From an uncultured virus (IMG/VR IMGVR_UViG_3300042879_001731) (taxonomy: Duplodnaviria > Heunggongvirae > Uroviricota > Caudoviricetes), in IMG/VR virus record IMGVR_UViG_3300042879_001731: a stretch of DNA of 64,000 bases; one strand, written 5' to 3'. Each line of letters starts with the position of its first letter. Position 1 is the first letter of the stretch. The notes under the pieces are model-generated. The model made no database searches. It saw only the letters and a list, made by a program, of their open reading frames with translations, and was not told the DNA's origin. Position numbers and translations under genes: made by a program. Shown here piece by piece: positions 5,482 to 53,772 of this stretch.

Positions 5482-5745
5482 ATGGTAGATTACACATTAG
5501 CATTAATAAACATAGACCTAACAATAAACAAAATGTTGTTCAGGCTAAAATTAGAGGATTTAAGCGACAAAAAAAGAAAAGGAATACAAACTATCATCAA
5601 AGACTTAGAAAAGGCTTCAGAAGTCATTAAAATGCAAAATACAGAGATAGAATACCAAATACAAACTAACTCGAAATTGTATTTAGAGAATCTAAAGCTA
5701 AAAAGAATGATAGAAGAACTAACAAAAACAGGACTTGAATTATAA
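5482..5745 (+). CDS. Hypothetical coiled-coil protein
   Basis: ORF track; its TAA stop is the TAAC of hairpin site 1. Confidence 0.7.
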   Translation: MVDYTLALINIDLTINKMLFRLKLEDLSDKKRKGIQTIIKDLEKASEVIKMQNTEIEYQIQTNSKLYLENLKLKRMIEELTKTGLEL

Positions 5746-5833
5746 CGTTTTGCGTATATGTGCAGTACGCATAGATGGAACTTTAAATTAACAACAAATG
5801 CCGAAAGCGTATTGCACATATACGCTGTTAGGC
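5740..5833 (+). repeat. attC-like hairpin site A1 (long)
   Basis: ttataac, 19-bp stem 5752-5770/5807-5825, gttaggc (fits GTTRRRY). Confidence 0.85.
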
Positions 5834-5845
5834 GCAGTTAAAATT

Positions 5846-6070
5846 ATGGAAACGAAAGAAATAATAAAATTGATGTTGAAATCATCAGACCACAACCCAT
5901 ACACAGGGATGTTATCAAAGAAAGACAATTTAATCGCAGCGATTGACTTGGCTAAATTGTGTAAAGACTTTGCAGATAAAGGACAAATGGACGAAGCAAT
6001 GAACATTGAAAGTGAACAATGGGTTGTGGTCATTTCTGAACTCGAAGGTATGTCGCTTAATTGCGCCTAA
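5846..6070 (+). CDS. Cassette gene, hypothetical protein (METKEIIK..., 74 aa)
   Basis: Single ORF between sites A1 and A2; stop lies in gcctaac. Confidence 0.75.
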   Translation: METKEIIKLMLKSSDHNPYTGMLSKKDNLIAAIDLAKLCKDFADKGQMDEAMNIESEQWVVVISELEGMSLNCA

Positions 6071-6196
6071 CGTTTTGCAGATAAGCGAAGGCAAAGATTT
6101 AGAAACTAAAATTTTAACTTTAAAACAAATTTAATTATGAAAACGAGAACATCAATTTACCACAGAACCTTTGCTTTTGCTTATGTGCTGTTATAA
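6065..6196 (+). repeat. attC-like hairpin site A2 (long)
   Basis: gcctaac (fits RYYYAAC), 20-bp stem 6077-6096/6169-6188, gtta at 6190. Confidence 0.85.
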
Positions 6197-6264
6197 GCTG
6201 GCTGCGGATTATTAACTAAAAAATTAAATTGAAGCACTAAACAAAAGAATTAAAAAAAAGAGGG

Positions 6265-7038
6265 ATGGAAATAAATAAAATATACAACGAGAATTGCCTT
6301 GATACAATGGCTAAAATGCCTGATAATTTTATTGACTTAACTGTTACTTCACCGCCTTATGACAATTTGAGAACTTATAATGGCTATTGTTTTGACTTTG
6401 AAAATGTAGCTAAGGAACTTTACAGGGTGACTAAGGAACAAGGTGTTTTGGTTTGGGTAGTAGCTGATTCTGTGATAGATGGCTCTGAAAGTGGAAATAG
6501 TTTTAGGCAAGCATTGTATTTTAAGGAACAAGGATTTAACCTGCACGATACAATGATATATCAAAAAAACAGTTATCCGTTTCCGCCTACAAACAGATAT
6601 TATCAGCAATTTGAATATATGTTTGTTTTTAGCAAAGGAAAGCCTAAAACTACTAATTTACTAAAATGTGAAAGCGGTAACAAAAAGCGTAAATCTACAC
6701 AAAGGAATAAGGATGGAACGACAAGTTCATTTACATCAGAAGGTAACAAAGAAAGGATAATGGACAATGTTTGGATTGAAGATACTGGATATATGAGAAC
6801 GACAAAAGACAAATACGCATTTAAGCACCCTGCAATGTTTCCTGAAAGTTTATGTGAAAAACACATACAAACTTGGAGCAATGAGAGTGATTTGGTTTAT
6901 GATTGCTTTATGGGAAGCGGGACAACCGCTAAAATGGCAATTTTGAATAATAGAAAATATATTGGAAGTGAGATTTCAGAAGAATATTGTAAGATTATCG
7001 AAACTCGTATTAAAGAGTGCGGTGGGCTTTTTTTTTAA
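6265..7038 (+). CDS. Cassette-borne beta-class amino-DNA methyltransferase (N4-mC/N6-mA)
   Basis: TSPPY catalytic motif, HPAMFP, DCFMGSGTT SAM-binding motif. Confidence 0.93.
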   Translation: MEINKIYNENCLDTMAKMPDNFIDLTVTSPPYDNLRTYNGYCFDFENVAKELYRVTKEQGVLVWVVADSVIDGSESGNSFRQALYFKEQGFNLHDTMIYQKNSYPFPPTNRYYQQFEYMFVFSKGKPKTTNLLKCESGNKKRKSTQRNKDGTTSSFTSEGNKERIMDNVWIEDTGYMRTTKDKYAFKHPAMFPESLCEKHIQTWSNESDLVYDCFMGSGTTAKMAILNNRKYIGSEISEEYCKIIETRIKECGGLFF

Positions 7039-7086
7039 TTCTTTTGAAACGAAATTGTCAAACGAAGCAGGAACGTAGCAGCTTGC

Positions 7087-7156
7087 TTATAACACAAAAG
7101 CAGGCGCAGTATTATTGCGCTTGCTGACTGTTAGAAAGCCGTTTTAATGGCGTAAA
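7087..7156 (+). repeat. attC-like hairpin site A3 (short, putative resident site)
   Basis: taac 7090...gtta 7133; homologous to 32039-32105 including downstream cgttttaatggcgtaaa. Confidence 0.85.
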
Positions 7157-7171
7157 AATTAAACTTAGATT

Positions 7172-7696
7172 ATGAAAAAATGCCGTAACTGTCAAGAAAG
7201 ATTTAATCCTATACGTTCAACGCTTGAAAAGTATTGCCAAAAAGACGAATGTATCAGAGCAATGGTCTGCGAAACAAAAGCGAAACTCTGGAAGCAGAAT
7301 AAGAAAAAGATGAAAGAGGATATAATGACTGTTCAAGACTACATGAAAGTAGCACAGCAAACTTTTAATAAATATATCCGTCTTCGTGATCAAGGAAAGA
7401 ATTGTATTTCATGTGGCAAAATCCCAAAGAAAGAGAACGCAGGACATTTCTATTCAGCTGGAACACACACAGCAGTAAGGTTTGACGAACGAAATGTACA
7501 TTTACAATGTGAACACTGTAATTCATATTTGAGCGGAAACTTATTAATGTACAGAGACAACTTATTAATTAAGTTGGGATATGAAGAATTTGAACGTTTA
7601 ACAGTTGAAGCTATGTTAACACGAAAATACACACGAGAAGAATTAAAAGAAATAATTAACACATATAAGTTAAAAATAAAATCGTTTAAAAGTTAG
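7172..7696 (+). CDS. ninG: NinG/Rap-like HNH junction endonuclease
   Basis: FNKYIRLRD..CISCG...AGHF...RFDERNVHLQCEHCN. Confidence 0.9.
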   Translation: MKKCRNCQERFNPIRSTLEKYCQKDECIRAMVCETKAKLWKQNKKKMKEDIMTVQDYMKVAQQTFNKYIRLRDQGKNCISCGKIPKKENAGHFYSAGTHTAVRFDERNVHLQCEHCNSYLSGNLLMYRDNLLIKLGYEEFERLTVEAMLTRKYTREELKEIINTYKLKIKSFKS

Positions 7697-30567: not shown

Positions 30568-30807
30568 ATGAAAACAGCATTACAATGGTTTATTCAACAA
30601 ATAAAATATATAAATATAATTGTACCAAAAGAAAATTCAGATAAACTTTTATCAATGATGCATCAAGCCAAAGAAATGGAGAAAAACAATATATGTGATG
30701 CTTGGGATAATGGATATGATAAAGGAACAAGAGATAGGATTGAAAAAATATCAAATCCAGTTGGCAATGCAGAACAATACTACAACGAAACCTTTAAATC
30801 AGAGTAA
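30568..30807 (+). CDS. MKTA...EQYYNETFKSE family small protein
   Basis: Spans the repeat junction; paralog of 2706-2915. Confidence 0.8.
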   Translation: MKTALQWFIQQIKYINIIVPKENSDKLLSMMHQAKEMEKNNICDAWDNGYDKGTRDRIEKISNPVGNAEQYYNETFKSE

Positions 30808-30898
30808 GATGAAAGAAGATAAATTTTTAATAAAATCATTGTTGTTAATTATAATCTCAACAATATTAGGAGGGTTAGTTTATTCGTTATTGTTTAAA
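30659..30898. repeat. Direct repeat copy 2; junction between phage A and phage B
   Basis: Matches 1-240. Confidence 0.97.
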
Positions 30899-31761: not shown

Positions 31762-32041
31762 TACAAAATGGTTGTATACGGACAAGGCTGGCAGGGAACA
31801 CGAGGTAAAGTTTGATGATTGTGAAAAAGAAAATTTCTGCGATGAGGTCAAGAAGCATGATGCACACTACGACAATACGAACGGAAGTCTGTACAAGTTT
31901 GCTGAGGACTACGGGCTGAATGCGTATGAGTTCGACATAATTAAACGCATTACAAGATGCCGAAAGAAGGGTCAGTTTAAGGAAGACCTAGAGAAGACAA
32001 AGAGAGTTATTGATTTATATCTTAATGAGTTTATTAGCTAA
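31748..32041 (+). CDS. DUF3310-like (T7 gp1.7-like) protein
   Basis: AHY...IIKRITRCRKKG...EDLEK; its stop is the TAA of the hairpin site. Confidence 0.65.
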   Translation: MKINNTKWLYTDKAGREHEVKFDDCEKENFCDEVKKHDAHYDNTNGSLYKFAEDYGLNAYEFDIIKRITRCRKKGQFKEDLEKTKRVIDLYLNEFIS

Positions 32042-32105
32042 CACAAAAGCAGGGATTGTTTTAATGATCCTTGCTAACTGTTAAAAGTCGTTTTAATGGC
32101 GTAAA
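32039..32105 (+). repeat. attC-like short site B0 (apparently empty)
   Basis: taacacaaaagcagg...cttgctaactgtta...cgttttaatggcgtaaa, homologous to 7090-7156. Confidence 0.85.
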
Positions 32106-32128
32106 TTAATTAATTAAAAACAAAAATT

Positions 32129-32506: not shown

Positions 32507-32521
32507 TAACCCGTTTTGCTA

Positions 32522-33364
32522 ATGTACTCTTCAGGATATATATATAAGATAACATCACCATCCAATAAAATATATATTGGACAAGCAGTTAATATATCTA
32601 GAAGAAAAAGCAGGTATAAATCTTTTGACTGTAAAGAACAAACAAAGCTATATAGATCTTTAAAAAAATATGGTTTTGAAAATCATAAGTTTGAAGTTAT
32701 AGAGGAATGTGCTTTTGACCATTTGAATATTAGAGAGAGATACTGGCAAGAATTTTATGAAACTTTAGGCATCAATGGATTAAATTGTTTTTATGTTGAG
32801 ACGAACAATCTTCCAAGAATTGTTTCTGATGAAACTAAACAAAGAATTAAACAAGGATTAGTTGGAAAAATTAAATCAGGAAAAGATCATTATGCTTTTG
32901 GTAAAAAACTTACTGATGAACAAAAAGAATTCTTATCAAGAATAAACACTGGTAAAAAGATGCCAAAAAGTGCTATAGAAAAAATGACTGGAAAGAATAA
33001 TCCTAACTATGGCAAGGCACTTCCTGAATGGCATAAGAAAAGATTATCTGAACTTCAGAAGGAAAGATTCAAGGACAAGTCTAATCATCCCTTTACAGGA
33101 AGAAATCATAAAGAAGAATCAAAACAAAAAATGTCAAACGCCAAAAAAGGCATAAAACTTAATAAAGAATGGAGAGATAAAATAGTTGAATCAATTAAAG
33201 ATAGATACTGCGAATATAAAGACAAGATAGTTCTTGACTTAAGTACAGGTATTTATTATTACAATTGTGCTGATGCTGCTAGATATAATAATATGAATAG
33301 CACAACATTATCACATATGCTCGTAGGAAGCAAAAGAAACAAAACAAATTTAATTTACGTTTAA
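32522..33364 (+). CDS. GIY-YIG homing endonuclease (NUMOD3-like repeats)
   Basis: GYIYKITSPSNKIYIGQ, RERYWQ, HKEESKQKMS. Confidence 0.9.
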   Translation: MYSSGYIYKITSPSNKIYIGQAVNISRRKSRYKSFDCKEQTKLYRSLKKYGFENHKFEVIEECAFDHLNIRERYWQEFYETLGINGLNCFYVETNNLPRIVSDETKQRIKQGLVGKIKSGKDHYAFGKKLTDEQKEFLSRINTGKKMPKSAIEKMTGKNNPNYGKALPEWHKKRLSELQKERFKDKSNHPFTGRNHKEESKQKMSNAKKGIKLNKEWRDKIVESIKDRYCEYKDKIVLDLSTGIYYYNCADAARYNNMNSTTLSHMLVGSKRNKTNLIYV

Positions 33365-39607: not shown

Positions 39608-39738
39608 TATATAACGGCTGACGCTATACGAAGGTGGGGATTAAAAGTACTGAACCCTGACTTACCACAAAAGTAAATTAGAAGTACTAATGTACAAATT
39701 TGGCACACAGCCCCACTTTTGTATAGCGTATGTTATAG
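39608..39738 (+). repeat. attC-like hairpin site B1 (long)
   Basis: taac 39612, 19-bp stem 39621-39639/39711-39729, gtta 39732. Confidence 0.85.
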
Positions 39739-39757
39739 GCTGTAAAATTTACGGATT

Positions 39758-40015
39758 ATGAAACAAGAATATCCAAAGAAAGAAAAAGTTTATGTAGTTG
39801 CAACACACCATTACTGTTTTAGAGTAGGTGAGCCATCTGAAATAATTGGCGTTAAAATGGGGCAACCTGACGAGAAATCAAAGCCAAGATTGGTTTATGA
39901 AGTAGAATATTCAGATGGCGTTAGAGATGAAATATGTGTATCTGAAATAGGAATGAATTATCAACTACTGACTTTTGCTGATGTTAAAAGTGGAAGGTTT
40001 AATACGGAGCAGTAA
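39758..40015 (+). CDS. Cassette gene, hypothetical protein (85 aa)
   Basis: Single ORF between sites B1 and B2. Confidence 0.8.
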   Translation: MKQEYPKKEKVYVVATHHYCFRVGEPSEIIGVKMGQPDEKSKPRLVYEVEYSDGVRDEICVSEIGMNYQLLTFADVKSGRFNTEQ

Positions 40016-40033
40016 GGTAGTAAATTTTATTGC

Positions 40034-40161
40034 CTATAACGGTGAATTATTGGAGCAGTTGCCCATCAAAATATTGACAAACTTAAATTGAAACACAAAT
40101 GATAAAAAAACCACAGAACCCCGATACGAAGGAGGCAATTGCTTCCAATAATATGTTAGCT
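40034..40161 (+). repeat. attC-like hairpin site B2 (long)
   Basis: taac 40037, stem 40046-40063/40134-40152 with bulged T, gtta 40155. Confidence 0.85.
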
Positions 40162-40206
40162 TTTGGTTTTTGGCGAAACCTCAAATGCTATTTAGAACTG
40201 CCATTT

Positions 40207-40413
40207 ATGAGTAAGTGGAGAAGGAGAGAAAAAATTACACACATACCGATATGCTTAGGGCTTACCGTTTCGTGGAGTGATTACGACTTTGAATTGTGTG
40301 ATATGGAAGAATACTTTCCGAGAGGCAGAAAAGACGGTAAGCATAGATTGACTATATCGTGTGGAATTTTTTATTGGTGGATACGACTAACTTTCTATTC
40401 GCCAAAAACTTGA
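40207..40413 (+). CDS. Cassette gene, hypothetical protein (start may be 40099, inside the site loop)
   Basis: Single ORF between sites B2 and B3. Confidence 0.6.
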   Translation: MSKWRRREKITHIPICLGLTVSWSDYDFELCDMEEYFPRGRKDGKHRLTISCGIFYWWIRLTFYSPKT

Positions 40414-40466
40414 AGCTAACAGTCGCATAGGCATCCGCTTTAGTGGTGCTTATGCTTTGTTATGTG
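40414..40466 (+). repeat. attC-like hairpin site B3 (short, putative resident site)
   Basis: taac 40417, gcataggcatccgct/agtggtgcttatgc, gtta 40459. Confidence 0.8.
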
Positions 40467-42641: not shown

Positions 42642-43797
42642 AAACGTAAAGAAAAGAATCGAGGAGCTTTATAATGACGGCATACAATCAAAGTCAGAAA
42701 TAGCCAGAAGGTTAAAATCAGAGTTTCCAGAACTATCATTTGACGCAATAAGATTTAAAGCGTCAAGATACATAAAGAGGATAAGTAACGTTGCTTTTTA
42801 CGAAGAATGCGAGAAGATAGGTATAGACCCTAATACTGTTAATCACTACTGGTATAAAGGAAAGCATTATTCTATAAATGTTAAAGGGGATTTAGACAAT
42901 TCATTAGGTATAGACTTTGAAAAAGTTATATCTGACTGCATGAGTAATTATAGTCCAGTTAGTAAAATTAAACATTCGGAAGATTATGAAATGTTTGATA
43001 GATTAATATGGACAGATGTGCATGTTGGTATGGATGCCAGTAGAAACTCATTAGCATTGTATCCATCTGAATGGAATGCAGATGTTTTATTCAGGAGAAT
43101 TCATGAAATGGCAGATTTTGTTTTAAACAATAAGACTGGAAGTATACTTATAATTGATGAGTTAGGAGATTTTATGGACGGATGGGATGGCGAGACAACA
43201 AGAAAAGGCCATAAACTACCACAAAATATGACTAATGAAGAAGCTTTCGACACAGCTTTAAAGGCTAAAATTCTTCTTGTAAGTTTATTAGCTAGTAGTT
43301 ATGACTACATATATTGCAACAATATATGTGAAGATAATCACGCTGGATCATTTGGATATATTGTTAATTCAGCATTTAAAAATGTTGTTGATTGTAAGTT
43401 TAATAATGTAGAGGTTAAAAATCATCAGAGATTTATAAATCATTATATATTTGGAGTGCATGCATTTATAATAACTCATGGAAAAGATTCTCGTAATTTG
43501 AAATTTGGATTTAAACCTGTTTTGGATCCTAGAACTTCTGAAAAAATATCTCAATATATAAGACATAATTCTGAGCTAAGATCAATAGACAATATTGAAT
43601 TTAGCAAAGGTGATTCACATCAATGTCTTTTTGATATGTGCACATCTGATGAATTTGATTATTTTAATTATCCAGCATTTAGCCCATCATCTGAATGGGT
43701 TCAAACAAATTTCAAGAAAGGAAAGTCTGGATTTGTAATGCAAAATATATCTAAAAATACATCTCAAAAAATTACAAAAACATATTTCTTTAATTAA
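42634..43797 (+). CDS. Calcineurin-like metallophosphoesterase with N-terminal HTH
   Basis: TDVHVG, LGDFMDG, DNH, THG, GDSH. Confidence 0.75.
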   Translation: MSKNVKKRIEELYNDGIQSKSEIARRLKSEFPELSFDAIRFKASRYIKRISNVAFYEECEKIGIDPNTVNHYWYKGKHYSINVKGDLDNSLGIDFEKVISDCMSNYSPVSKIKHSEDYEMFDRLIWTDVHVGMDASRNSLALYPSEWNADVLFRRIHEMADFVLNNKTGSILIIDELGDFMDGWDGETTRKGHKLPQNMTNEEAFDTALKAKILLVSLLASSYDYIYCNNICEDNHAGSFGYIVNSAFKNVVDCKFNNVEVKNHQRFINHYIFGVHAFIITHGKDSRNLKFGFKPVLDPRTSEKISQYIRHNSELRSIDNIEFSKGDSHQCLFDMCTSDEFDYFNYPAFSPSSEWVQTNFKKGKSGFVMQNISKNTSQKITKTYFFN

Positions 43798-44507
43798 TGA
43801 TTTATAAATGTGTTATATATAAAATAACTTCACCTTCTAATAAAATATATATTGGTCAGAGTAAAAATGTAAATAAGAGATTTAAGCAATATCAAAAAAT
43901 GAATTGTAAAACTCAAAAAGTATTACTTAATTCATTAAATAAATACGGAGCAGATAATCATATATTTGAAGTCATAGAAGAATGTGCTTTTGAAGATTTA
44001 AATATTAGAGAGAGATATTGGCAGGAATATTATAATTCATTAGCTCCAAATGGATTAAATTCCATGCTTACAGAGTCTAAAGATTCTCCTAGAGTTGTAT
44101 CAAAATCAACTTCAATTAAATTATCTGAATCCAAAATAGGAAATAAAAACCCTATGTATGGAAAGAAAAAGACTGATGCTCAAAAAGAATATTTATCATT
44201 AAAATTTAAAGGAAGAGTGTTTACAGATGAATGGAAAAGAAAAATACAGGAATCTAAAATTAAATCTGGCAAGCATAAACATGGAAAGCCAATGTCAGAA
44301 GAAACAAAACAAATGTTAAAACTTGCTCTAATAGAAAAATTTTCTGGATTTAATAATACAAGATCAAGGATAGTTCTTGATGTAGAAACTGGAATATTTT
44401 ATTATAACGTTAATGACGTTTCATTGTATAATAACATACATAAAGAAACATTAAGAGCTATGCTTAAAGGTAGAATTAAAAACAAAACTAAATTTATATT
44501 TGCATAA
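43797..44507 (+). CDS. GIY-YIG homing endonuclease, paralog of 32522
   Basis: IYKITSPSNKIYIGQ, FEVIEECAF..LNIRERYWQE. Confidence 0.9.
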   Translation: MIYKCVIYKITSPSNKIYIGQSKNVNKRFKQYQKMNCKTQKVLLNSLNKYGADNHIFEVIEECAFEDLNIRERYWQEYYNSLAPNGLNSMLTESKDSPRVVSKSTSIKLSESKIGNKNPMYGKKKTDAQKEYLSLKFKGRVFTDEWKRKIQESKIKSGKHKHGKPMSEETKQMLKLALIEKFSGFNNTRSRIVLDVETGIFYYNVNDVSLYNNIHKETLRAMLKGRIKNKTKFIFA

Positions 44508-44524
44508 AATATATGATTGTGAAC

Positions 44525-44558
44525 AAAAGAAACCCCTGGTTTGCGCCAGGGGATTTTT
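44525..44558. terminator. Bidirectional terminator between convergent arms
   Basis: A-run, cccctgg/ccagggg stem, T-run. Confidence 0.85.
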
Positions 44559-47500
44559 TATCTGTTCTTGTATTTTTTATTATATATTACAATGGCATTC
44601 TTTGATACTTTTCTTCCTGAAGCAGCCATTGCTTTATTTAGACTACTAACTTCCTCTGAATCCAAATCAGTTCCGTATCTGTTGTAAAGTTTCAACGCCT
44701 GTACTTCAGGTGTATCTTCATAGATTATATCTAGAATTGATTTATCCACATTCATATTTCTAATGTAGGCGTAATATTTTTCTACATATTTACGAACATC
44801 TTTTTTGTCAAAATTATCTTTGACCATATCTATCAATTCGCCATTAGTCATTTTTTCACCTTTGTCATATATTGACTTTATCTCGTTGTATACTTTCTGC
44901 TCTTTATTGTATATTTCAGTTTCTATTAGCATTTCTTTTGCTTCAGCTTCATCTTGTTTTTTATACATTAAGATATCTTTATTTGTTTTTCTAACAAGTT
45001 TCCTTTCTGCAGATTCAAATACTTTTCCAAGTCCTTCTGTAAATTCTTTTCCAAAAGAACTGTCTTTAGTAAATACACCATTAGCAGCACCATTAAATAT
45101 TGCTATTGTAGGGTTTGTATTTTCACTCGTAATTATTTTTTCTACAAATGCTTTTGTTCTTATTGGTGAAAGACCCAACTTAGGTGCCAACACTTTATAA
45201 ATATCTTCTACTTTATTATCATATATACCTTCAGATGTAGGATCTATTTTTTTGTTTTTAGGTTCTCTAAATACTTTTTCTCCTGTGAACGTATCTTCAT
45301 TGAAATGATATGTAAGTAATCCAGATACAAGTGGGTTTCTTGACATTATATCAGATGGCATAAGTGGAGTAGACATTTCTATAGATGTGTTTATTACTTT
45401 ATCATCTAATTTGTATGAATCACCAAGTAAATGTTTATACAAATATTGTTCTGATATCGTACTTAAAACAGATAGTAATGGAAGCTTTTTGATTCTTACA
45501 TATGTATACTCTCCATTCTCATCTACATTTCCTGTAAATATTATATGATAGTTTGCTTTTTCGTAATCACTTAATGATGCTAAAGTGTTTGCTATTTTCT
45601 TTTTCTTCTCCTCTTCATCATCACCAGGGATAGCTTTTGCTAATGCAGCTAAAGACATACCAGCAACACTTCCTGCCATTAAAGATGCTTGTATCATTGA
45701 CGATGCAAAAGCAACTGGATTTTTTCTAGCATAATCTAATGGTCTTCTAAAACCTTGAAGTGATGCATTTAAATATGGCATTACAAGATCTGCTTGTTTA
45801 GCCCAGTCACCACCTTGACTAAAATCTATAGTTTCTCTAGCCTCTCTTGTAGCTTCATACATTATATCCTCAAGATCTTGACCTGTAGGTTCAGTGCCAT
45901 TCTCTTTTTTATAATCTGATATTAAGTCATTTTTAACCTTATCGTATACAGATAATCTAAATGCAACTTCAGATGTCTCTCCTAAGAATGCCATAGCTTT
46001 TCCATATCCAAGAATTAATTTGTGTATCGGACTAAATATCTTAAATCCTGGATTTAACTCTTTTATGGCTCTAATACCATCATTTGACATATAGTCCATT
46101 GCTCCACCATGTTCTACATATTCTCTATATGTTTTATTTAGAGTGTCTTTCTGTATGGCTTTTCTAAAGAAGTTCTTAGTAAAATCCCATCCTAATCTCA
46201 ATCCACCAAGCACCTTAAATTTGCCCAATCCTTTTGAGTATACATCAGAGAACAATAATATATTTTGGAAGTCAACAGCGGTGTTACCAATTATAAATAA
46301 TGGGTTACCACCTGTAGCAAAGAAACGAAGTATCTGACCACCAGTTAACTTACCAATCAATTCAAATCCTTTGTTTTTGTTTTTTATATCTAACAATTGA
46401 TTTGCAAAACTTTCCTTGACTATAATATATTGTTGAACACCATTTTTATAATAGTTTATTTTTCTATATCCAAGCGGAAGTTTTTCATCGTCATATTTAC
46501 GTTTTGGCCTGCCATCTTTGTAAGATCCAATAATAGGATTATCTGTAATCATAAATTCAGATAGTGCTATCTTTTCTTCAGCCGTGGAGTTTTCTACAGC
46601 TTTGGCAAATTCTCTCAACATTTTATTTTCAAATGCACGAGATTCAACCGTTTCTATATTCATCATTAAAAGCCATCTTGAGTCAGTTATAATTTCATTC
46701 TCATTCTGATCAGTTAATTTCATTATATCTTTTTTAGATACTCCTAATCTAGCAGCTTCCTTGTCTATATCTCCTATATCAGTATCTTCTGAAATTAAAT
46801 ACTTTAATGTCTTTATAGGAGAATATTCTAAGTCTCTTAAGCTTTCATATGTCTCTTTAACTATTCTTCCAGACTCATATAATTTATCTAGGTTTTCTCT
46901 AAATACATCAAAGTATGCATCTGCTCTAGAATTTAATTTATCAAAAGTAGCATCTCCTATTTCTGATCTAATTTTAGCTAAATCATTTTGAGCATTAACT
47001 TCTGAATAACCACCCATACCTCTATATGGATTCATTCCATTTGCTTTTCTGTTTTCATTTACAGATATTACACGCCTTGCATATATTATCTTATCAAGAG
47101 CATCTAGTTGCTTTTTATTTAATCCTTTATATATTTTTCCTTCAGCCTCTTTAAATCTAAATGCAGCTAATCCCTTTGCCCCGGCTTTGTTTATAAGAAG
47201 ATTGTACGCTCTTCTAGCATCTACTCCACTTATACCTTTTATAATTCTCTTAGCTGCAGCTTGTCTATCAAGAAACTTCTGTCTTATAAATCTTAATGCC
47301 CTAACTACTATATTGCCTTTTTTCTTTTTATTTAAAGCTTCTTTGCTTTTATTGAATATCTCATCAATCGACATTGATCCAGCTACACCTGCAGACATTG
47401 CATTTGTTATCTGCTGCTGTGTATAACCTTGATTTAACAAGTACTGTGTAATTGCAGCATCAGAGAAACCATTCTGTCTAGCTGTAGATATGATTTGAGT

Positions 47501-50500
47501 CATACCTTGAGGTGTTTGCTTTCTAGCTTCGAATGAATTGTCTATTGCAGATATGCTTTTTACACCAGCACCATATGGAGCAACTACCTGTGACTTTTGA
47601 GCTTCTGCTGTTATGTTTGAGTATTTGTCTTTTATTTCTTTTGGCATTATGTCAAATGCATTCACTTTTTTATTTGGAACACCTATTACTTCTCCAAGTA
47701 AATCATTCTCATAAGTTGAGTGCTGTGATTTTCCGCCAACAGATTTTGGCTTTAATACCAACATGATATCATTCATCTTGAAATTATTTTCTTTATAGAA
47801 TCCATCTCTTAATTCATTAGGATCTATAAACGCATTGTAATTTTCAAGTACTTCTTTTAATCTTGTTCCCTTTTTAGTTTTTACATCTTCAAATGCATTT
47901 AGCAATTTTTTTCTATCTGGCGATTGTTTAATTGAATCCCAACTATCATGAGACTCCATAACCTCTCTGACAGCTTTTATTGGATTAGATTCTAATACAT
48001 CTTTTTTAAATGAATTAAAATCTCCTACTCTTTCTTGAAGTAACTCAAATACACTTACATTAAAAAACTTACTAGCAGTAGGGCTTCCACTTATTATGAA
48101 TATGTAATCAGAAGAATTTATAAATCTGTTAAGTTCTTTAGCTGATTTTCCAGATGCCCAAATTATGCTTTTATCTCTATTTTTAGGATCTAATGCATAG
48201 GATGGACCTGCATCTAAATAATGTTCTTTACCTATTACATTATCAAAATACATTCCTCGTCCCAATTGGTCAGCAACCCAGAACCATACTTTCTGATTTT
48301 TATTAGATATCTCATTTATCAATGATTCTATATCTACCAAATCTTTTTCTGTTACAAAAGACAAATCAAATTTTTTGTCTATAGCTACAGCTTCTTGCTT
48401 TCTAGATAATTTGTTTATTATAGAAGGTATAGATATGAATGTAGATGATCCTTCAGCTATAGCTTTAATATCATTACTTGTAATCTCTTCACCTTTAGCA
48501 ACTTTTTGTGAGACAGTATTCATAAAGTCAATAACTTCTCTATCAGTTAATGGCTTTAATCCAAATATCTTTGCGATTCTATCTAAAAATCTTCTTATCA
48601 GATTTTGAGTTGTAGTAGGTAGAGTTACATAATTGTCTGCCAGGATAGCAAACAATTCAGCCAACTTCTCTTCATTCTGAATATTTTCCTCATAGTTTGA
48701 AGCAAAGTCATTAAGATAAGATATAACCTGCCCTGCTCCTTCTACATTAACCAAAGATTTTCTAACAGCGTCTATCATTGCTTTGGTTAATCTTTGCGCC
48801 TCAAGATCAGTATTTATTCCGTTAAGTATAACAGCATGAAATACTTCGTGAGCTGCAGTTCTATTGTTTGCCTTAGAAGCATTTATATGTATAGTCTTAG
48901 TCTTTGGATTATATTCTCCTGCAGATGATTGTGAACGACCCTCTTCGTTTGTTGCTTTTCGATATGACTTATCATTATCGTGAACTACAAATTTAACACT
49001 AGGCAAAATTTTGGATATTGACTTGGCTGCATTAACTATTGACTCAGCAACCTTTTTGTTATCCTTAGATATTTTAATGCCTTTAAATTGCTCATCAATC
49101 TGTTCATCTGTACCTTCTAGTAGTTTACCAAGTGCTTCAACTTCCGCTTGAACTTCAGGAGCAACTGCCTCTTCAGTTGTTACTTCTTCTGCGACTGCTG
49201 TTGGTTCAGTAGGTAATGACATTTCGGCTCTATCTGATTTCTCAAATAAATCACCAATATTTTCTTTATTATAGTCAACTTGAATCTGCCCATCAATTAC
49301 AGGTCTATATCCTTGATCGTAAAGATTTTCAGCTTCATTCTCTTTTACAGTGATAGAAGATGGAGATAATTTTTCAGCTTCAAATACAACTATATTTTTT
49401 ACTCCTTGTTTTTCATTTAAAGATAAATCTTCATCTATAAATGAAGCAGCTTCAAATCCTTTGTTTTTTAAAGAATCAAATAATTTTTGTTTATTGTCAT
49501 CTCCAATATAAGTTTCTTCAAATCTTGGATCTATTAATTCATACAATCTTGATTCATCATTAACTTCTACTCCAAGTTCAGATATAGCATTTGTTACATC
49601 TTGTTCAGATGCTACAGCATTTTTAGGTATAGTATATTTAATAACATTTCCTTGATTGCCTTTAGCGTATTCAGTAGCTTGATTTTTATCTTCTGTTACA
49701 TAAATATCACCAGTCTTTTCATCCATTGATCCACCATGATAGACATCAATAGTTTCTACCCCTTCTTCTTGGACACCCCTGCCTTCGACAGGGCGATTGC
49801 CAAGATCTGTGCCTTGCTGCGTGGTTTCCCCGACTGGCCTTTCTCCTTCCCTGACTTGAGGTTGTCCTTCATTAACTCCCTCACGTTGTAAGCCACCGCC
49901 TTCTGCTGTGACTTCTTCGACTGGTTTTGTGCTTTCTTTAACGGCATTTTCTGATATGTTTTTAAGTTCGTTATTAATATCGGCAATTCTTGCCTTTTGC
50001 ACTGCAACAAGATTTTCATCTTTTCCTGCAATTTCTTTTTCTATTTTTGATCTTTCTATCAATAAGTCAAAAGACTTATTTCTATTTTCGTCAGTGATAT
50101 TATCAGGAAGTTTTTCAAATGTATTTGCAGTTTCATTAACAGCATCTATTTGTTTTTGTCCTTCTTCCTTAGTTAATTCACCATTAACTATTTTAGTTTT
50201 TATTTTTGTTACCATCATTGACCTAAGTTCTGAATCAGTAACAGATTTTTCTAAAATCTCAATAGCTAATTTGTTTTTGTTAGATATACCATCAGTTATT
50301 GCTTTAGTAGCTTGAACTGGAGACTGCATAATAGCACCTCCCATCGCTCCTAAATATGCAGCTTCAAATGATTGAGCAAGTAAACTTTCAGGTTCTTCAA
50401 ACATTTTTTTGCCTTTCATGGCATTATAAATCTTCTTTATACTTCCTTCTGCAAGTTCTTGTGCAAATTCAGTAGAACCTTCTACAAGAGCACCCCCAGC

Positions 50501-52246
50501 TACATTTATAGCCCCCTTAGCTAACAATGCTTTTACATTTGTATTTATTGCTTGTTCAAGCATCTCAGCAGTAGCATCTTTTGGAAGATCTCCAACTGTT
50601 TTTAATAATACTTTATTTATTATTGATTTTGATATTGGATTTTTAGACATTATTTTTTCTAATCCAAATTTTTCAAGCCATCCAACAGTAAGACCTATAG
50701 TGCTTGCCACTAATGTTTTTTCAAGTTCAGGTACTCCGTTAAAATCTGGATTATCATCCATTTCATCTTTAACATCGTAATATGTTTGAGCGTAAAAAGA
50801 AGGAAGCGTAGCAACGCCACCACCTCCTACGGCAGCTCCTATACTATTGCTTAAACTAAATAGTACTTTCTCTATATCACTTCTTTCTTTAGATGTAGCA
50901 AATTCTTGAGTAGTATAATCTGAACCTATTAACTTAATAAGTTCCTCTTGCGATGATCTTTCAAGTCCGGCAAATCTCCATATGTTTGTAGCTCCTTTTA
51001 AGAAGTTATTTATCATTGCTCCTCCAGTGGAACCTTTTCCTTCTTTAAACAACATATACTCTCCAGCAATGTCGTCTAATTTTGTTTGATATGATTTACT
51101 TAATTGTAGATTTTGATCTAATGAACTAGTTTCTTTATTTAGCATTTCAGCTCTTCCTTCTAATGCTAATTTTCTTTCTGTTAGTTCTGGAGTTTCAATG
51201 CCATTATTTCTTTCAAGATCTGCTTGCCATCTTACAACTTCATCATCATATTCTTTAGACTTTCTATTAAGATCAACACTAACTCTTGCTATGTCATTAA
51301 GACTATTGCTTATATATCTATTTTGTTTTGCAATCTCATCTTTATTTCCATAAACAGCGGCAACTCTAGCCCTTACTTCAGCATCGTCTTCTTTTCCCTT
51401 TGTCTGTTTAGCTTTATTTATATCAGTCATAAGAGCATCCATTCTGCTCTTATTATACTTCATAGCTTCTTTTTCTTTTTCTTTTAACTTTAGTTGAGTC
51501 TTTATATCTAAAGCTAATTCGTCCGGTATTTCTGCAGACATATTTGAGAAAGCATCGCTTTTTAAACTTTCTCTTTGTTTTGGAGTTATGTTTTTTATTG
51601 CTGATATTTCATCATCAATTTTATTGTACCTTTCTCTATCAATGGTATTTATATTTTCTTTAAGCCATGCTTTTAATCTAACTGCTTCAGATGAATCTCC
51701 TTCATCTGTCCAATTGTCAAGCATAAATACTTCAGAATTCTTTCCATCTTGCGTTATAACTCTAATCCTATCTCCAACTCCTGTTTGTTCAAAGTTAAAA
51801 CCTAAACGCCCATAATTTTTTTGAAGATATGGTACAACTTTTTCTTCTTCGTTATCTATAAGTTTGCCAGATATGCCTTCAAATCCTTCAGAAGGAACTA
51901 TATTTTTTTTGTATTGTTTATTAAGACCAATTATAGCATTTGAGTCCTTTACTGTAACCCAATCTTTCCCTGGTTCTTTTCTTTGCCAGTTATTATTTAT
52001 AATTCTATATTGATTGTCTTCTTTAGTTGGAAAGTTTGTAAATACTTCCACTTTATTTTTTGATACAGAAGTACCCAAAGGCTTTTGAGTTTCCTTGGAT
52101 GGAGTACCCGAAGAAATAGGTTTTGGTTTTTGTACGGATGGTGATACCGTAGTTTCTTTTTTTTTTACAGGTTGGAATTTTTCCCAAGGTTTTTGCTCTT
52201 GAGATTCACTTGCATATATTTCCCACGGTTTTTTTTCGTCTGGCAT
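44558..52246 (-). CDS. Giant polyvalent/internal virion (ejection) protein, ~2560 aa
   Basis: ART-like VYHG...IYVT...ATEYA, zincin AHEVFH...EEKLAE, LPD38-like IDFSQGG...PYLNASLQG. Confidence 0.75.
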   Translation of the reverse strand: MPDEKKPWEIYASESQEQKPWEKFQPVKKKETTVSPSVQKPKPISSGTPSKETQKPLGTSVSKNKVEVFTNFPTKEDNQYRIINNNWQRKEPGKDWVTVKDSNAIIGLNKQYKKNIVPSEGFEGISGKLIDNEEEKVVPYLQKNYGRLGFNFEQTGVGDRIRVITQDGKNSEVFMLDNWTDEGDSSEAVRLKAWLKENINTIDRERYNKIDDEISAIKNITPKQRESLKSDAFSNMSAEIPDELALDIKTQLKLKEKEKEAMKYNKSRMDALMTDINKAKQTKGKEDDAEVRARVAAVYGNKDEIAKQNRYISNSLNDIARVSVDLNRKSKEYDDEVVRWQADLERNNGIETPELTERKLALEGRAEMLNKETSSLDQNLQLSKSYQTKLDDIAGEYMLFKEGKGSTGGAMINNFLKGATNIWRFAGLERSSQEELIKLIGSDYTTQEFATSKERSDIEKVLFSLSNSIGAAVGGGGVATLPSFYAQTYYDVKDEMDDNPDFNGVPELEKTLVASTIGLTVGWLEKFGLEKIMSKNPISKSIINKVLLKTVGDLPKDATAEMLEQAINTNVKALLAKGAINVAGGALVEGSTEFAQELAEGSIKKIYNAMKGKKMFEEPESLLAQSFEAAYLGAMGGAIMQSPVQATKAITDGISNKNKLAIEILEKSVTDSELRSMMVTKIKTKIVNGELTKEEGQKQIDAVNETANTFEKLPDNITDENRNKSFDLLIERSKIEKEIAGKDENLVAVQKARIADINNELKNISENAVKESTKPVEEVTAEGGGLQREGVNEGQPQVREGERPVGETTQQGTDLGNRPVEGRGVQEEGVETIDVYHGGSMDEKTGDIYVTEDKNQATEYAKGNQGNVIKYTIPKNAVASEQDVTNAISELGVEVNDESRLYELIDPRFEETYIGDDNKQKLFDSLKNKGFEAASFIDEDLSLNEKQGVKNIVVFEAEKLSPSSITVKENEAENLYDQGYRPVIDGQIQVDYNKENIGDLFEKSDRAEMSLPTEPTAVAEEVTTEEAVAPEVQAEVEALGKLLEGTDEQIDEQFKGIKISKDNKKVAESIVNAAKSISKILPSVKFVVHDNDKSYRKATNEEGRSQSSAGEYNPKTKTIHINASKANNRTAAHEVFHAVILNGINTDLEAQRLTKAMIDAVRKSLVNVEGAGQVISYLNDFASNYEENIQNEEKLAELFAILADNYVTLPTTTQNLIRRFLDRIAKIFGLKPLTDREVIDFMNTVSQKVAKGEEITSNDIKAIAEGSSTFISIPSIINKLSRKQEAVAIDKKFDLSFVTEKDLVDIESLINEISNKNQKVWFWVADQLGRGMYFDNVIGKEHYLDAGPSYALDPKNRDKSIIWASGKSAKELNRFINSSDYIFIISGSPTASKFFNVSVFELLQERVGDFNSFKKDVLESNPIKAVREVMESHDSWDSIKQSPDRKKLLNAFEDVKTKKGTRLKEVLENYNAFIDPNELRDGFYKENNFKMNDIMLVLKPKSVGGKSQHSTYENDLLGEVIGVPNKKVNAFDIMPKEIKDKYSNITAEAQKSQVVAPYGAGVKSISAIDNSFEARKQTPQGMTQIISTARQNGFSDAAITQYLLNQGYTQQQITNAMSAGVAGSMSIDEIFNKSKEALNKKKKGNIVVRALRFIRQKFLDRQAAAKRIIKGISGVDARRAYNLLINKAGAKGLAAFRFKEAEGKIYKGLNKKQLDALDKIIYARRVISVNENRKANGMNPYRGMGGYSEVNAQNDLAKIRSEIGDATFDKLNSRADAYFDVFRENLDKLYESGRIVKETYESLRDLEYSPIKTLKYLISEDTDIGDIDKEAARLGVSKKDIMKLTDQNENEIITDSRWLLMMNIETVESRAFENKMLREFAKAVENSTAEEKIALSEFMITDNPIIGSYKDGRPKRKYDDEKLPLGYRKINYYKNGVQQYIIVKESFANQLLDIKNKNKGFELIGKLTGGQILRFFATGGNPLFIIGNTAVDFQNILLFSDVYSKGLGKFKVLGGLRLGWDFTKNFFRKAIQKDTLNKTYREYVEHGGAMDYMSNDGIRAIKELNPGFKIFSPIHKLILGYGKAMAFLGETSEVAFRLSVYDKVKNDLISDYKKENGTEPTGQDLEDIMYEATREARETIDFSQGGDWAKQADLVMPYLNASLQGFRRPLDYARKNPVAFASSMIQASLMAGSVAGMSLAALAKAIPGDDEEEKKKKIANTLASLSDYEKANYHIIFTGNVDENGEYTYVRIKKLPLLSVLSTISEQYLYKHLLGDSYKLDDKVINTSIEMSTPLMPSDIMSRNPLVSGLLTYHFNEDTFTGEKVFREPKNKKIDPTSEGIYDNKVEDIYKVLAPKLGLSPIRTKAFVEKIITSENTNPTIAIFNGAANGVFTKDSSFGKEFTEGLGKVFESAERKLVRKTNKDILMYKKQDEAEAKEMLIETEIYNKEQKVYNEIKSIYDKGEKMTNGELIDMVKDNFDKKDVRKYVEKYYAYIRNMNVDKSILDIIYEDTPEVQALKLYNRYGTDLDSEEVSSLNKAMAASGRKVSKNAIVIYNKKYKNR
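49756..49947 (-). CDS. Nested out-of-frame small basic protein (MPLKK...AIALSKAG)
   Basis: Resembles a widespread phage small-protein motif; A-rich start context. Confidence 0.6.
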   Translation of the reverse strand: MPLKKAQNQSKKSQQKAVAYNVRELMKDNLKSGKEKGQSGKPRSKAQILAIALSKAGVSKKKG

Positions 52247-52248
52247 AT

Positions 52249-53772
52249 TTATTGTTTTTTCCAATTATTCTGATTAGATGGATCTCCTCCTAGAAATTTA
52301 TAACCACCAACTATATCTCCCTTTTTAGGTGTGGTTGTCTTAGTATTACCACTCAACCCTTTTGCAGTTCTATATTGAGTTCTTCCTTCTCTATATCTAG
52401 TTGTAGCATCAGCTTTACTACTACCACCTACAGCATAAAATGCTAATCCTTCTGGGTCAGTTGCTATATCTACTGGGTCTCCAACCATGTAGTTATCAGA
52501 AACTGGATATACTTTAACAGTTCCATTTTCAAACTTATATCTATACTTACTGCTTAATCCGCTAAAATTTTTAGTTCCGCCTTTGCCTCCTTCAGGAGTC
52601 ATTCCAAATGCATCCAATGTAGCGATATATCCTAGTTGGAATTTTTTAAGATCTTCTTTTTGTTTAGCTATATCTTTTTCTTCAGAATAAGTCATTCCAT
52701 CTCCACCATCGCCTCTACTAGGAGCAAATCCTCTTTCTTCTTTTCTTTTATTTACAAGGCTAACTTCAATATAGTCCTCAACTACCGACTGAGCATCCTT
52801 AATCATTTTTTCATTTATAACAGGCTGATATTTACCATCGTTATCTTGAACAACTTGAATTAAGTTTTCTCGGTTATATTTGTCTGCAAATTGAGCCTTC
52901 TCATCTTCAGACATTTGTTTGCCTGTAGCAAGTTCTTTATTAGATATTGCTTTTTGAATAAGGTTTATTCTTTGTTGTTCTGTATAATATTCTTGATAAT
53001 TTAAATTGGAATTATCTAACAATACAGAAACTACTGCTCTAGGGTTATTTGTATCTACAATCGATCCTATCAAATCAGCTTTAGCATTGTTATAGAATTC
53101 TTTATTCAATCTTATATCTTCTTCAGATACAACTGATCCGCTAGTTTGTAAATCCTCAAGAACCCAAGGCTCCCAATTTTTGATAACACTTTCAACTGTA
53201 TCAGCTACCTTTATTTTTTTATCTACAACATTATTCATGTTAGTATAATTCCTAACATTTTGGTATGTGCCATCATTTCCTACAACAAAAAAATCACCAT
53301 TGTTACCAACATCTAATTTTTTATTTGCAATATTCATCAGATCTGAATTTATTCCAGCAGAAAATATCATATGAGCAGACGCATCACCATCCTCAATAGC
53401 TTTATTTATTCCAACTACATAGCTATCTAAATTCTTAGACGCAGTTGTAAATGCATCAAATGAATCATTTAAATTATTTATTTTTCTTTGGTACTCAGAT
53501 CTTGTAATTTCTCCAGACTTTAACTGTCTGTTCCATTCCATGGATTTTTGTCTAGCTGCATCTAAACCTTTAAATGTAAATTCATTAAATGGTTGACTTT
53601 GTGTAGACTCCCAAGAGTTTAGTCTGTTACCTATATCTGTAAAAAGCTTTTCATCGGCAGCCTTTCTTTCTTCCCTTGCTTTAAGACCTTGATCTATATC
53701 TGTCTTAACGCCTTTAGCTAAAGAAAGCCAATCAATAGACTTGCCTGGTATATATCCTGCGTATTCTTGCAT
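52249..53772 (-). CDS. Putative internal virion/ejection protein
   Basis: Helical 507 aa; precedes the giant protein. Confidence 0.55.
   Translation of the reverse strand: MQEYAGYIPGKSIDWLSLAKGVKTDIDQGLKAREERKAADEKLFTDIGNRLNSWESTQSQPFNEFTFKGLDAARQKSMEWNRQLKSGEITRSEYQRKINNLNDSFDAFTTASKNLDSYVVGINKAIEDGDASAHMIFSAGINSDLMNIANKKLDVGNNGDFFVVGNDGTYQNVRNYTNMNNVVDKKIKVADTVESVIKNWEPWVLEDLQTSGSVVSEEDIRLNKEFYNNAKADLIGSIVDTNNPRAVVSVLLDNSNLNYQEYYTEQQRINLIQKAISNKELATGKQMSEDEKAQFADKYNRENLIQVVQDNDGKYQPVINEKMIKDAQSVVEDYIEVSLVNKRKEERGFAPSRGDGGDGMTYSEEKDIAKQKEDLKKFQLGYIATLDAFGMTPEGGKGGTKNFSGLSSKYRYKFENGTVKVYPVSDNYMVGDPVDIATDPEGLAFYAVGGSSKADATTRYREGRTQYRTAKGLSGNTKTTTPKKGDIVGGYKFLGGDPSNQNNWKKQ

Follow-up and report, generated by a model that had tools for sequence, protein, structure and literature searches.

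The stretch analyzed here, 64,000 nucleotides of an uncultured tailed virus (IMG/VR record IMGVR_UViG_3300042879_001731, Caudoviricetes; called "the window" at its full length), starts with a 30.7-kb tailed-phage genome (part A, bases 1 to ~30885), and a second, different phage-like stretch (part B) continues from ~30886 onward. In part A, an array of hairpins and small gene units lies between a backbone gene for an 87-aa protein and the gene of the NinG/Rap junction endonuclease. Modules of two types alternate in this array: hairpin modules extend from TAAC to GTTA, gene modules extend from GTTA to TAAC, and the 4-base cores are common to neighboring modules (Table 1). The original prediction, made from the letters alone, had described three such hairpins, their alternation with one gene each (an open reading frame (ORF) of 74 aa, then a DNA methyltransferase gene), and gene units whose two ends are inverted complements of each other; the coordinates, the counts and the complementarity of the ends were all reproduced on recomputation.

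Table 1. Modules of the two arrays, the solitary hairpin and the flanking backbone genes in the window
Feature	Position	Strand	Remarks
Backbone gene, 87 aa, no family	5482..5745	+	First TAAC core begins with the TAA stop of this gene
H1 hairpin module, TAACG...CTGTTA	5743..5830	+	19-bp stem, one G:T pair on the + strand
G1 gene module, ends GTTAGGCGCAGTTAA / TTAATTGCGCCTAAC	5827..6071	+	Ends 14/15 complementary; the exception is G:T at position 11
H2 hairpin module, TAACGTTTTGCAGATAAGCG...GCTTATGTGCTGTTA	6068..6193	+	Loop with a truncated ORF, cut at the GTTA core
G2 gene module, ends GTTATAAGCTGGCTGC / GCAGCTTGCTTATAAC	6190..7093	+	Ends 14/16 complementary; N6/N4 DNA methyltransferase
H3 hairpin module, resident site	7090..7133	+	Together with 7134-7165, 76/76 identical in five relatives
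NinG/Rap junction endonuclease, backbone gene right of the array	7172..7696	+	Pfam 3.5e-37; PHROG 4.9e-51
Solitary H3-like hairpin (part B)	32039..32083	+	81.6% homology to 7090-7162, starting exactly at TAAC
Hairpin module, second array (part B)	39612..39735	+	Repeat search and energy ranking
Gene module, second array	39732..40040	+	Inverted ends 19/21, G:T at position 11; ORF 39758..40015, 85 aa, no family
Hairpin module, second array	40037..40158	+	~20-bp stem with G:T pairs, judged by eye
Gene module, second array	40155..40420	+	ORF of 86 aa, no family; ATG at 40153 overlaps the GTTA core
Terminal hairpin module, second array	40417..40462	+	Energy ranking

The hairpins of the array resemble each other in their cores only. 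H1 and H2 start with TAACG and all three finish with CTGTTA, while the stems differ, the lengths are 88, 126, and 44 nt for H1, H2, and H3, and nothing beyond the 4-5-base cores is common. Among the 226 TAAC..GTTA intervals in the window, the three rank 1st, 2nd, and 17th in folding energy per base. The H1 stem is 95% complementary, and a repeat search recovered H1 independently. An Rfam search gave nothing relevant for the hairpin sites at E-values up to 10. The cargo of G1 is the 74-aa ORF at 5846..6070, which has no match in Pfam or PHROG. That of G2 is the methyltransferase gene at 6265..7038 (Pfam PF01555, N6_N4, 2e-47), probably an anti-restriction gene; the ends of G2 contain the G:T pair plus one T-T mismatch. 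At the nucleotide level this gene is 65-75% identical to genes of Staphylococcus, Variovorax, and cyanobacteria phages, which fits a wide spread by horizontal transfer. The loop and right arm of H2 (6137-6199) contain the start of a small ORF, which has 19 codons and a stop just past the GTTA core. Some cassette ORFs may begin inside a hairpin, because in another locus (L057, 6420-6641) a hairpin homologous to H2 opens a 73-aa ORF with a lipoprotein-like signal, which reads through the core into the next unit.

Relatives of the phage, collected by a NinG search of viral contigs (best 80 of 376 taken), differ from it precisely at the cores. In L002, L003, L007, and L008, the flanks are 86-97% identical to those of the window; homology ends at 5749-5755 and resumes at 7088-7089. 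Among the window and these close relatives, three different contents are found between the two breakpoints, the alternatives to the window's being a single DUF7715 cassette, whose ends are 13/14 complementary, or a unit of two small ORFs, whose ends are 12/13 complementary, and at the position of H1, L003 and L002 have other hairpins instead. H3 and its right flank are kept without a change in five relatives, though the neighboring genes are only 86-97% identical. In more distant relatives, the array is absent and the two backbone genes overlap (L009), or a C5 methyltransferase gene without a hairpin is present at the array position (L005 and L006). Hairpins homologous to H2 are found with other flanks in L057, L082, and L163. 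TAAC is thus a breakpoint, because H3 keeps the right-hand backbone while the gene at its left changes, and both cores are breakpoints, because the H2-like hairpins of L057 and L082 have other sequences on either side.

The same positions are found in contigs from four other lake metagenomes, in which the sequence breaks or is rejoined at 5749/7089, 6068/6071, 6183-6200, and 7093. For example, one metagenome contig links 5749 to 7089 via 562 other bases, which correspond to the L003 allele, and the TAAC end of G1 (loose ends at 6071) runs into a different hairpin in contigs of three other lake metagenomes. Variants of the H2 loop are also present in metagenome contigs, with joints from 6092/6093 to 6173. 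A backward joint from 6200 to 6058 is found in one metagenome contig.

Furthermore, the methylase unit is found in other contexts. It recurs with 97% identity in L082, the complete 34-kb contig of an unrelated phage, where the homology covers only bases 6182-7093 of the window, from GTTA to TAAC, and the hairpins on either side differ from those of the window. Indeed, the hairpins at both sides differ in 6/6 contexts of this unit. The arms are more conserved than the protein: in L089 the first 15 bases of each arm are unchanged although the protein is only 64% identical, and in L091 and L101 the arms differ by 1-3 bases with proteins 63% and 61% identical, respectively. These alignments indicate an exchange of DNA between phages at precisely the two 4-base cores, with separate reassortment of hairpins and genes. 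They also indicate that the 74-aa ORF and the methyltransferase gene, flanked by the 87-aa gene and ninG, are cargo that arrived recently and can be replaced. The mobility of single-gene cassettes and their precise presence or absence at the TAAC/GTTA cores, as originally proposed, are therefore borne out by the close relatives. Two details of a classical integron reading are not supported: a single crossover at G|TT, at the right end of each hairpin, since homology breaks at both the TAAC and the GTTA cores, and a fixed cassette consisting of a gene plus its own attC, since in every context other hairpins flank the methylase unit on either side.

The site has a signature beyond its cores. Plain counts of end complementarity (12/14, or an extension score of at least 10) were rejected as evidence, other 4-base cores giving similar counts in AT-rich DNA. 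A stricter test was applied to the window and 158 related loci, requiring Watson-Crick pairing at arm positions 5-10 and 12-15. At position 11, 41/71 distinct GTTA-core units have G in the left arm opposite T in the right arm, and one has A opposite C; with eight control cores, 0-6 G:T pairs at this position are found among 8-109 units each. The site is specific and above chance. Two units of the window, 5827-6071 and 39732-40040, pass the strict test. The arm consensus from 125 units is GTTA-NNN-GC-N-G on the left and T-TGC-NNN-TAAC on the right. The hairpins share this bias: 56 distinct hairpin modules lying between two strict units begin with TAACG (98%) and end with TGTTA (100%), ends which give a second G:T pair on the same strand as the G:T pair at position 11, and the G:T strand of the hairpins is folded more stably than its complement in 48/56 (Wilcoxon p=1.7e-8). 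Since the G:T pairs are asymmetric, one DNA strand is therefore the strand selected to fold.

A tyrosine recombinase gene is missing from the phage itself, as the original prediction had noticed. PHROG scans, which covered 65 window ORFs, found no tyrosine recombinase, integrase, or transposase among the 34 ORFs of part A and no recombinase among the 31 ORFs of part B; PF00589 is absent from the IMG/VR record matching the window, whose completeness is rated 100%, and from the complete record of L082 as well; and 14 recombinase sequences gave no tblastn match against the window and loci L001-L161. The array of the window is thus an orphan, because the gene for the Xer-like recombinase described below is absent from this phage. 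Likewise, a Pfam search of 61 ORFs within ~3 kb of 19 other arrays found no tyrosine recombinase.

The enzyme was found beside an array of a 170-kb phage contig, in which a whole-record search gave PF00589 once. Over 16 kb of this contig, strict units follow one another without a gap in the series, at least 15 in number and each with G:T; their cargo is mostly N6_N4, MT-A70, and Dam methyltransferases, and the array stops 20 nt before a gene for a 298-aa tyrosine recombinase on the same strand. The best model for this protein is archaeal XerA at 206 bits (the cut-off of 220 is not reached), followed by XerD and XerC, and its nearest solved structure is Pyrococcus abyssi XerA (PDB 4a8e, 1.4e-44). 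With the integron-integrase model TIGR02249, whose cut-off is 265 bits, it reaches 155 bits, split over two stretches, and Vibrio IntI4 is matched in two pieces; the IntI-specific insertion thus appears to be missing from it.

With an alignment of 14 relatives of this protein, 80 viral recombinase loci were found (a single-protein query gave 2 loci only); at least one strict unit is present in 58 of them and at least two in 39. The placement is one-sided. Among the viral loci, 56 have 1 kb or more of sequence upstream of the recombinase gene, and in 39 of these a unit ends within 400 nt upstream of it, with G:T always on the strand of the gene; 77 have 1 kb or more downstream, and in 1 of these a unit starts within 400 nt downstream. 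In bacteria, mostly Flavobacteriales, Sphingobacteriales, and other Bacteroidota with one Desulfitobacterium, 80 recombinase loci were examined: 35 have a strict unit, 17 have at least two, and 23 have a unit within 400 nt of the gene. Here 83/103 units with the signature are found for the GTTA core, and the mean for other cores is 3.7. The core GTTG...CAAC gives 48/69 units with the signature in these bacterial loci (L166-L245), which suggests that it is a variant core in some bacterial arrays. Within one bacterial array the hairpins are near-copies and only the arms vary from cassette to cassette, and this uniformity resembles the attC sites of sedentary chromosomal integrons. No nucleotide match was found between the arrays of the window and the 80 bacterial recombinase loci. 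Because units of this type adjoin a recombinase gene elsewhere, both in phages and on Bacteroidota chromosomes, the originally suggested supply of the recombinase in trans is plausible.

Phage and bacterial arrays differ in the strand that carries the G:T pairs. Counting units at least half filled by an ORF, the cassette ORF is on the G:T strand in 43/44 phage units and on the strand opposite G:T in 58/63 bacterial units. An account of the wobble pairs by RNA folding was rejected, as the coding strand differs between phage and bacterial arrays; the wobble pairs mark a DNA strand, because selection for RNA structure would tie them to the coding strand, and they are not tied to it. This is the chief point against taking the hairpins for regulatory RNA elements and nothing else. 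In phages the recombinase gene follows the array on the same strand, and in most bacterial loci it precedes co-oriented cassettes.

Taken together, the array of the window is likely an orphan array of a gene-cassette system which is integron-like in its working and different in its build. In this system, hairpins running from TAACG to TGTTA would alternate with gene modules running from GTTA to TAAC, whose two ends are paired over 13-20 bases, with G:T fixed at position 11. A short Xer-like tyrosine recombinase would recognize the folded strand and exchange strands at the cores; for the mechanism beyond exchange at the cores, this is what we infer. The two cassettes of the window could then be inserted, lost, or replaced only with an enzyme provided in trans by a co-infecting phage or the host, because the phage does not encode the Xer-like recombinase.

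Several points weigh against this reading. The units are linked to the recombinase by adjacency alone, and a strict unit is lacking at 22/80 viral and 45/80 bacterial recombinase loci. The unit detector itself selects complementarity, so that only the G:T signature, the core controls, and the recombinase-side placement are independent. The phage's own recombination genes, for Erf, exonuclease, and NinG, could contribute. An empty resident hairpin site was not found; the exact 16-base left junction occurs in 13 loci, 8 by chance and 5 in true relatives, and such a site is present in none of them. Finally, breaks at two cores and the separate reassortment of hairpins and genes are unlike what a single fixed crossover predicts.

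One alternative is that the array is a classical cluster of attC sites lacking an integrase (CALIN), consisting of genuine attC sites recombined by the IntI of a host. Integrase-less cassette arrays of virulent phages are already published: attC clusters without an integrase were predicted in 17 phages, with methyltransferases among the cargo, and 5/6 tested sites recombined with IntI1 (Qi 2023; PMC9892861). These phages are like ours in single genes between AAC...GTT imperfect palindromes, in the lack of an integrase, and in methyltransferase cargo, and one of the tested sites is of the TAAC..GTTA type. This site, P12002L_attC1, is the reverse complement of the hairpin at 30008-30056 of L161, located beside a methyltransferase gene in Polaribacter phage P12002L; it was called by HattCI and is the sole site of the six that failed with IntI1 (Qi 2023). 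The available text of that study differs from the present account in reading the sites as classical attC serviced by IntI, and paired unit ends, a G:T signature, two-core breaks, and an Xer-like recombinase are unmentioned in it.

The fit to the consensus of integron cores is partial. The original prediction had found an exact fit to GTTRRRY/RYYYAAC; this is true of the first unit and fails for the second, which begins with GTTATAA, and only 12/125 unit ends fit overall, an exception among sites that all have AAC and GTT. Hairpins are not tied to a fixed gene, and the array-side recombinase, with archaeal XerA closest, is far below the integron-integrase cut-off. The available part of the IntegronFinder 2.0 preprint reports a single complete integron in Bacteroidetes proper. 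We therefore regard a CALIN as improbable.

The comparison with classical integrons has two sides. Both systems exchange cassettes at an AAC/GTT core in a folded, strand-asymmetric palindrome, and a better-folding strand, which in integron attC sites is the recombinogenic one, is also found here (G:T versus A:C 41 to 1; 48/56 hairpins). The integron-type recombinases are defined by an insertion, as stated in the available part of Smyshlyaev et al. (2021), whereas the present recombinase is short and Xer-like, apparently without the IntI insertion. In classical integrons the integrase gene is divergent at the start of the array; here the recombinase gene is at the array end and co-oriented in phages. 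Unlike in classical integrons, the two ends of a cassette are complementary to each other over 13-20 bases with the gene between them, a hairpin does not stay with one gene, and few ends fit GTTRRRY. A classical integron is thus not supported, the array-linked recombinase being a short Xer-like enzyme under the NCBIfam integron-integrase cut-off.

A second alternative, which has the same slight chance as a CALIN, is that the hairpins are regulatory (terminators, or processing or stabilizing stems) and the genes are shuffled between short motifs by the phage's Erf, exonuclease, and NinG, as proposed for the PeSL cassettes of T4-type phages (Arbiol et al. 2010; Comeau et al. 2014, PMC4122927). 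Both shuffling and mini-circles are known for PeSL, and the available part of the source describes small accessory genes shuffled between stem-loops in hyperplastic regions of virulent phages, as here (PMC2839356). It also describes conserved promoter-plus-terminator repeats and homologous recombination for PeSL, in contrast to the 5-base cores and the linked site-specific recombinase found here (PMC2839356). This reading is favored by genes of the phage itself (for an Erf-like annealing protein, SSB, an exonuclease, and NinG), by the position of the hairpins between genes and directly at stop codons, and by the stability that G:U pairs would have in phage transcripts. However, there is little substrate for homologous recombination, because the hairpins have only 5 bases in common and their stems and loops differ, and the complementary end pair of each gene unit is unexplained by recombination between direct repeats. 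In bacterial arrays, transcripts would carry A-C mismatches, because the better-folding strand is non-coding (58/63), and the arrays are placed tightly beside a tyrosine recombinase gene.

Single-strand transposition by an HUH enzyme of the IS200/IS605 type into a short target word beside a hairpin is very improbable: the TAAC word 4-5 bases ahead of the hairpin and the favored strand recall IS605-family elements, which insert 3' of TTAC or TTTAAC-like words, but no HUH transposase is found among the 65 window ORFs (PHROGs) or the 61 ORFs beside 19 other arrays (Pfam), the sites are symmetric (TAAC...GTTA), and the array-side enzyme is a tyrosine recombinase.

The cassette system outlined above, with its Xer-like recombinase, can also be compared with the pdif modules of Acinetobacter plasmids. 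These have XerC/XerD sites in alternating orientation, each a conserved 28-bp duplex like dif (11-6-11). As in the present arrays, modules of any size have inverted sites at their ends, and a recombinase of the Xer type is implicated. The pdif sites are conserved duplexes, whereas here the arms vary, pair mutually, and have wobble pairs on one strand, which points to folded single strands. A limited full-text search of the literature, which reached few subscription journals, gave no account of arrays of the TAAC/GTTA site type linked to a Xer-like recombinase; a survey of MITEs (PMC11602168) has no bearing on the sites. The Xer-linked architecture, the G:T-marked paired ends, the exchange at two cores, and the inverted polarity between phages and hosts appear to be undescribed.

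Part B contains further sites. Its second array, at 39612-40462, has the order hairpin, gene, hairpin, gene, hairpin and thus two more cassettes. In the solitary homologue of H3 (32039-32113), the changes in the stem are compensatory. The motif CGTTTTAATGSCG is found after or inside several hairpins: in the right flank of H3 (7134-7162), in its part B copy (32084-32113), in P12002L_attC1 of the Polaribacter phage, and in one metagenome loose end (run X2). A half site, TAACCCGTTTTGC, is located near 32507, and a GIY-YIG homing-endonuclease gene begins 6 bases after it, as if this gene had landed in or beside a hairpin module. Two such genes are present in part B, at 32507-33364 and 43797-44507 (PHROG 314, ~2e-30 and 2e-28, respectively). 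Beside large virion-protein genes in part B, a 2568-aa ORF on the minus strand (44558-52264) has no PHROG match.

Part A encodes, according to PHROG, an Erf-like annealing protein, an HNH endonuclease, an exonuclease, SSB, a primase/helicase, the N6/N4 DNA methyltransferase, NinG/Rap, a sigma-like factor, terminase, portal, tape measure, endolysin, and a polymerase exonuclease subunit. The nearest cultured relatives by the portal protein are Nonlabens (Flavobacteriia) phages, at 33% identity, and DNA of the phage was detected in lake-water metagenomes. Bases 1-227 are repeated exactly at 30659-30885, with a spacing of 30,658 bases, and the sequences diverge after the repeat; part A resembles a 30.7-kb genome that is terminally repeated or circularly permuted, with another phage behind it. 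The matching IMG/VR record has 32,142 bases, starts 803 bases earlier than the window, and agrees with it at every base of the 4.7 kb compared.

A wider reading, which we hold to be right or wrong with about equal likelihood when all its parts are taken jointly, is that a second and independent kind of integron operates in Bacteroidota and in their phages; a minimal Xer-type recombinase and a folded-DNA site in two parts would be its components. This site would consist of a generic TAACG...TGTTA hairpin and the cassette's own paired ends with their fixed G:T. For virulent phages the system would serve to keep and exchange anti-restriction methylases along with other small genes, and arrays that lack the enzyme, such as the present one, would be serviced in trans during co-infection. 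Relative to the genes, the polarity of the site is inverted between phage and bacterial arrays. If this reading is true, the inverted polarity would mean separate cassette pools, or a link to the strand that is single-stranded during replication. Integrons are the textbook device of bacterial gene capture and have been thought to depend on IntI and to be nearly absent from Bacteroidota. A parallel, plain Xer-like system that is common in Bacteroidota phages and chromosomes would, if real, widen this picture; it would provide a new and simple pair of recombinase and site for study, and it would explain how virulent phages without an integrase swap counter-defense genes such as methylases with base-pair precision.

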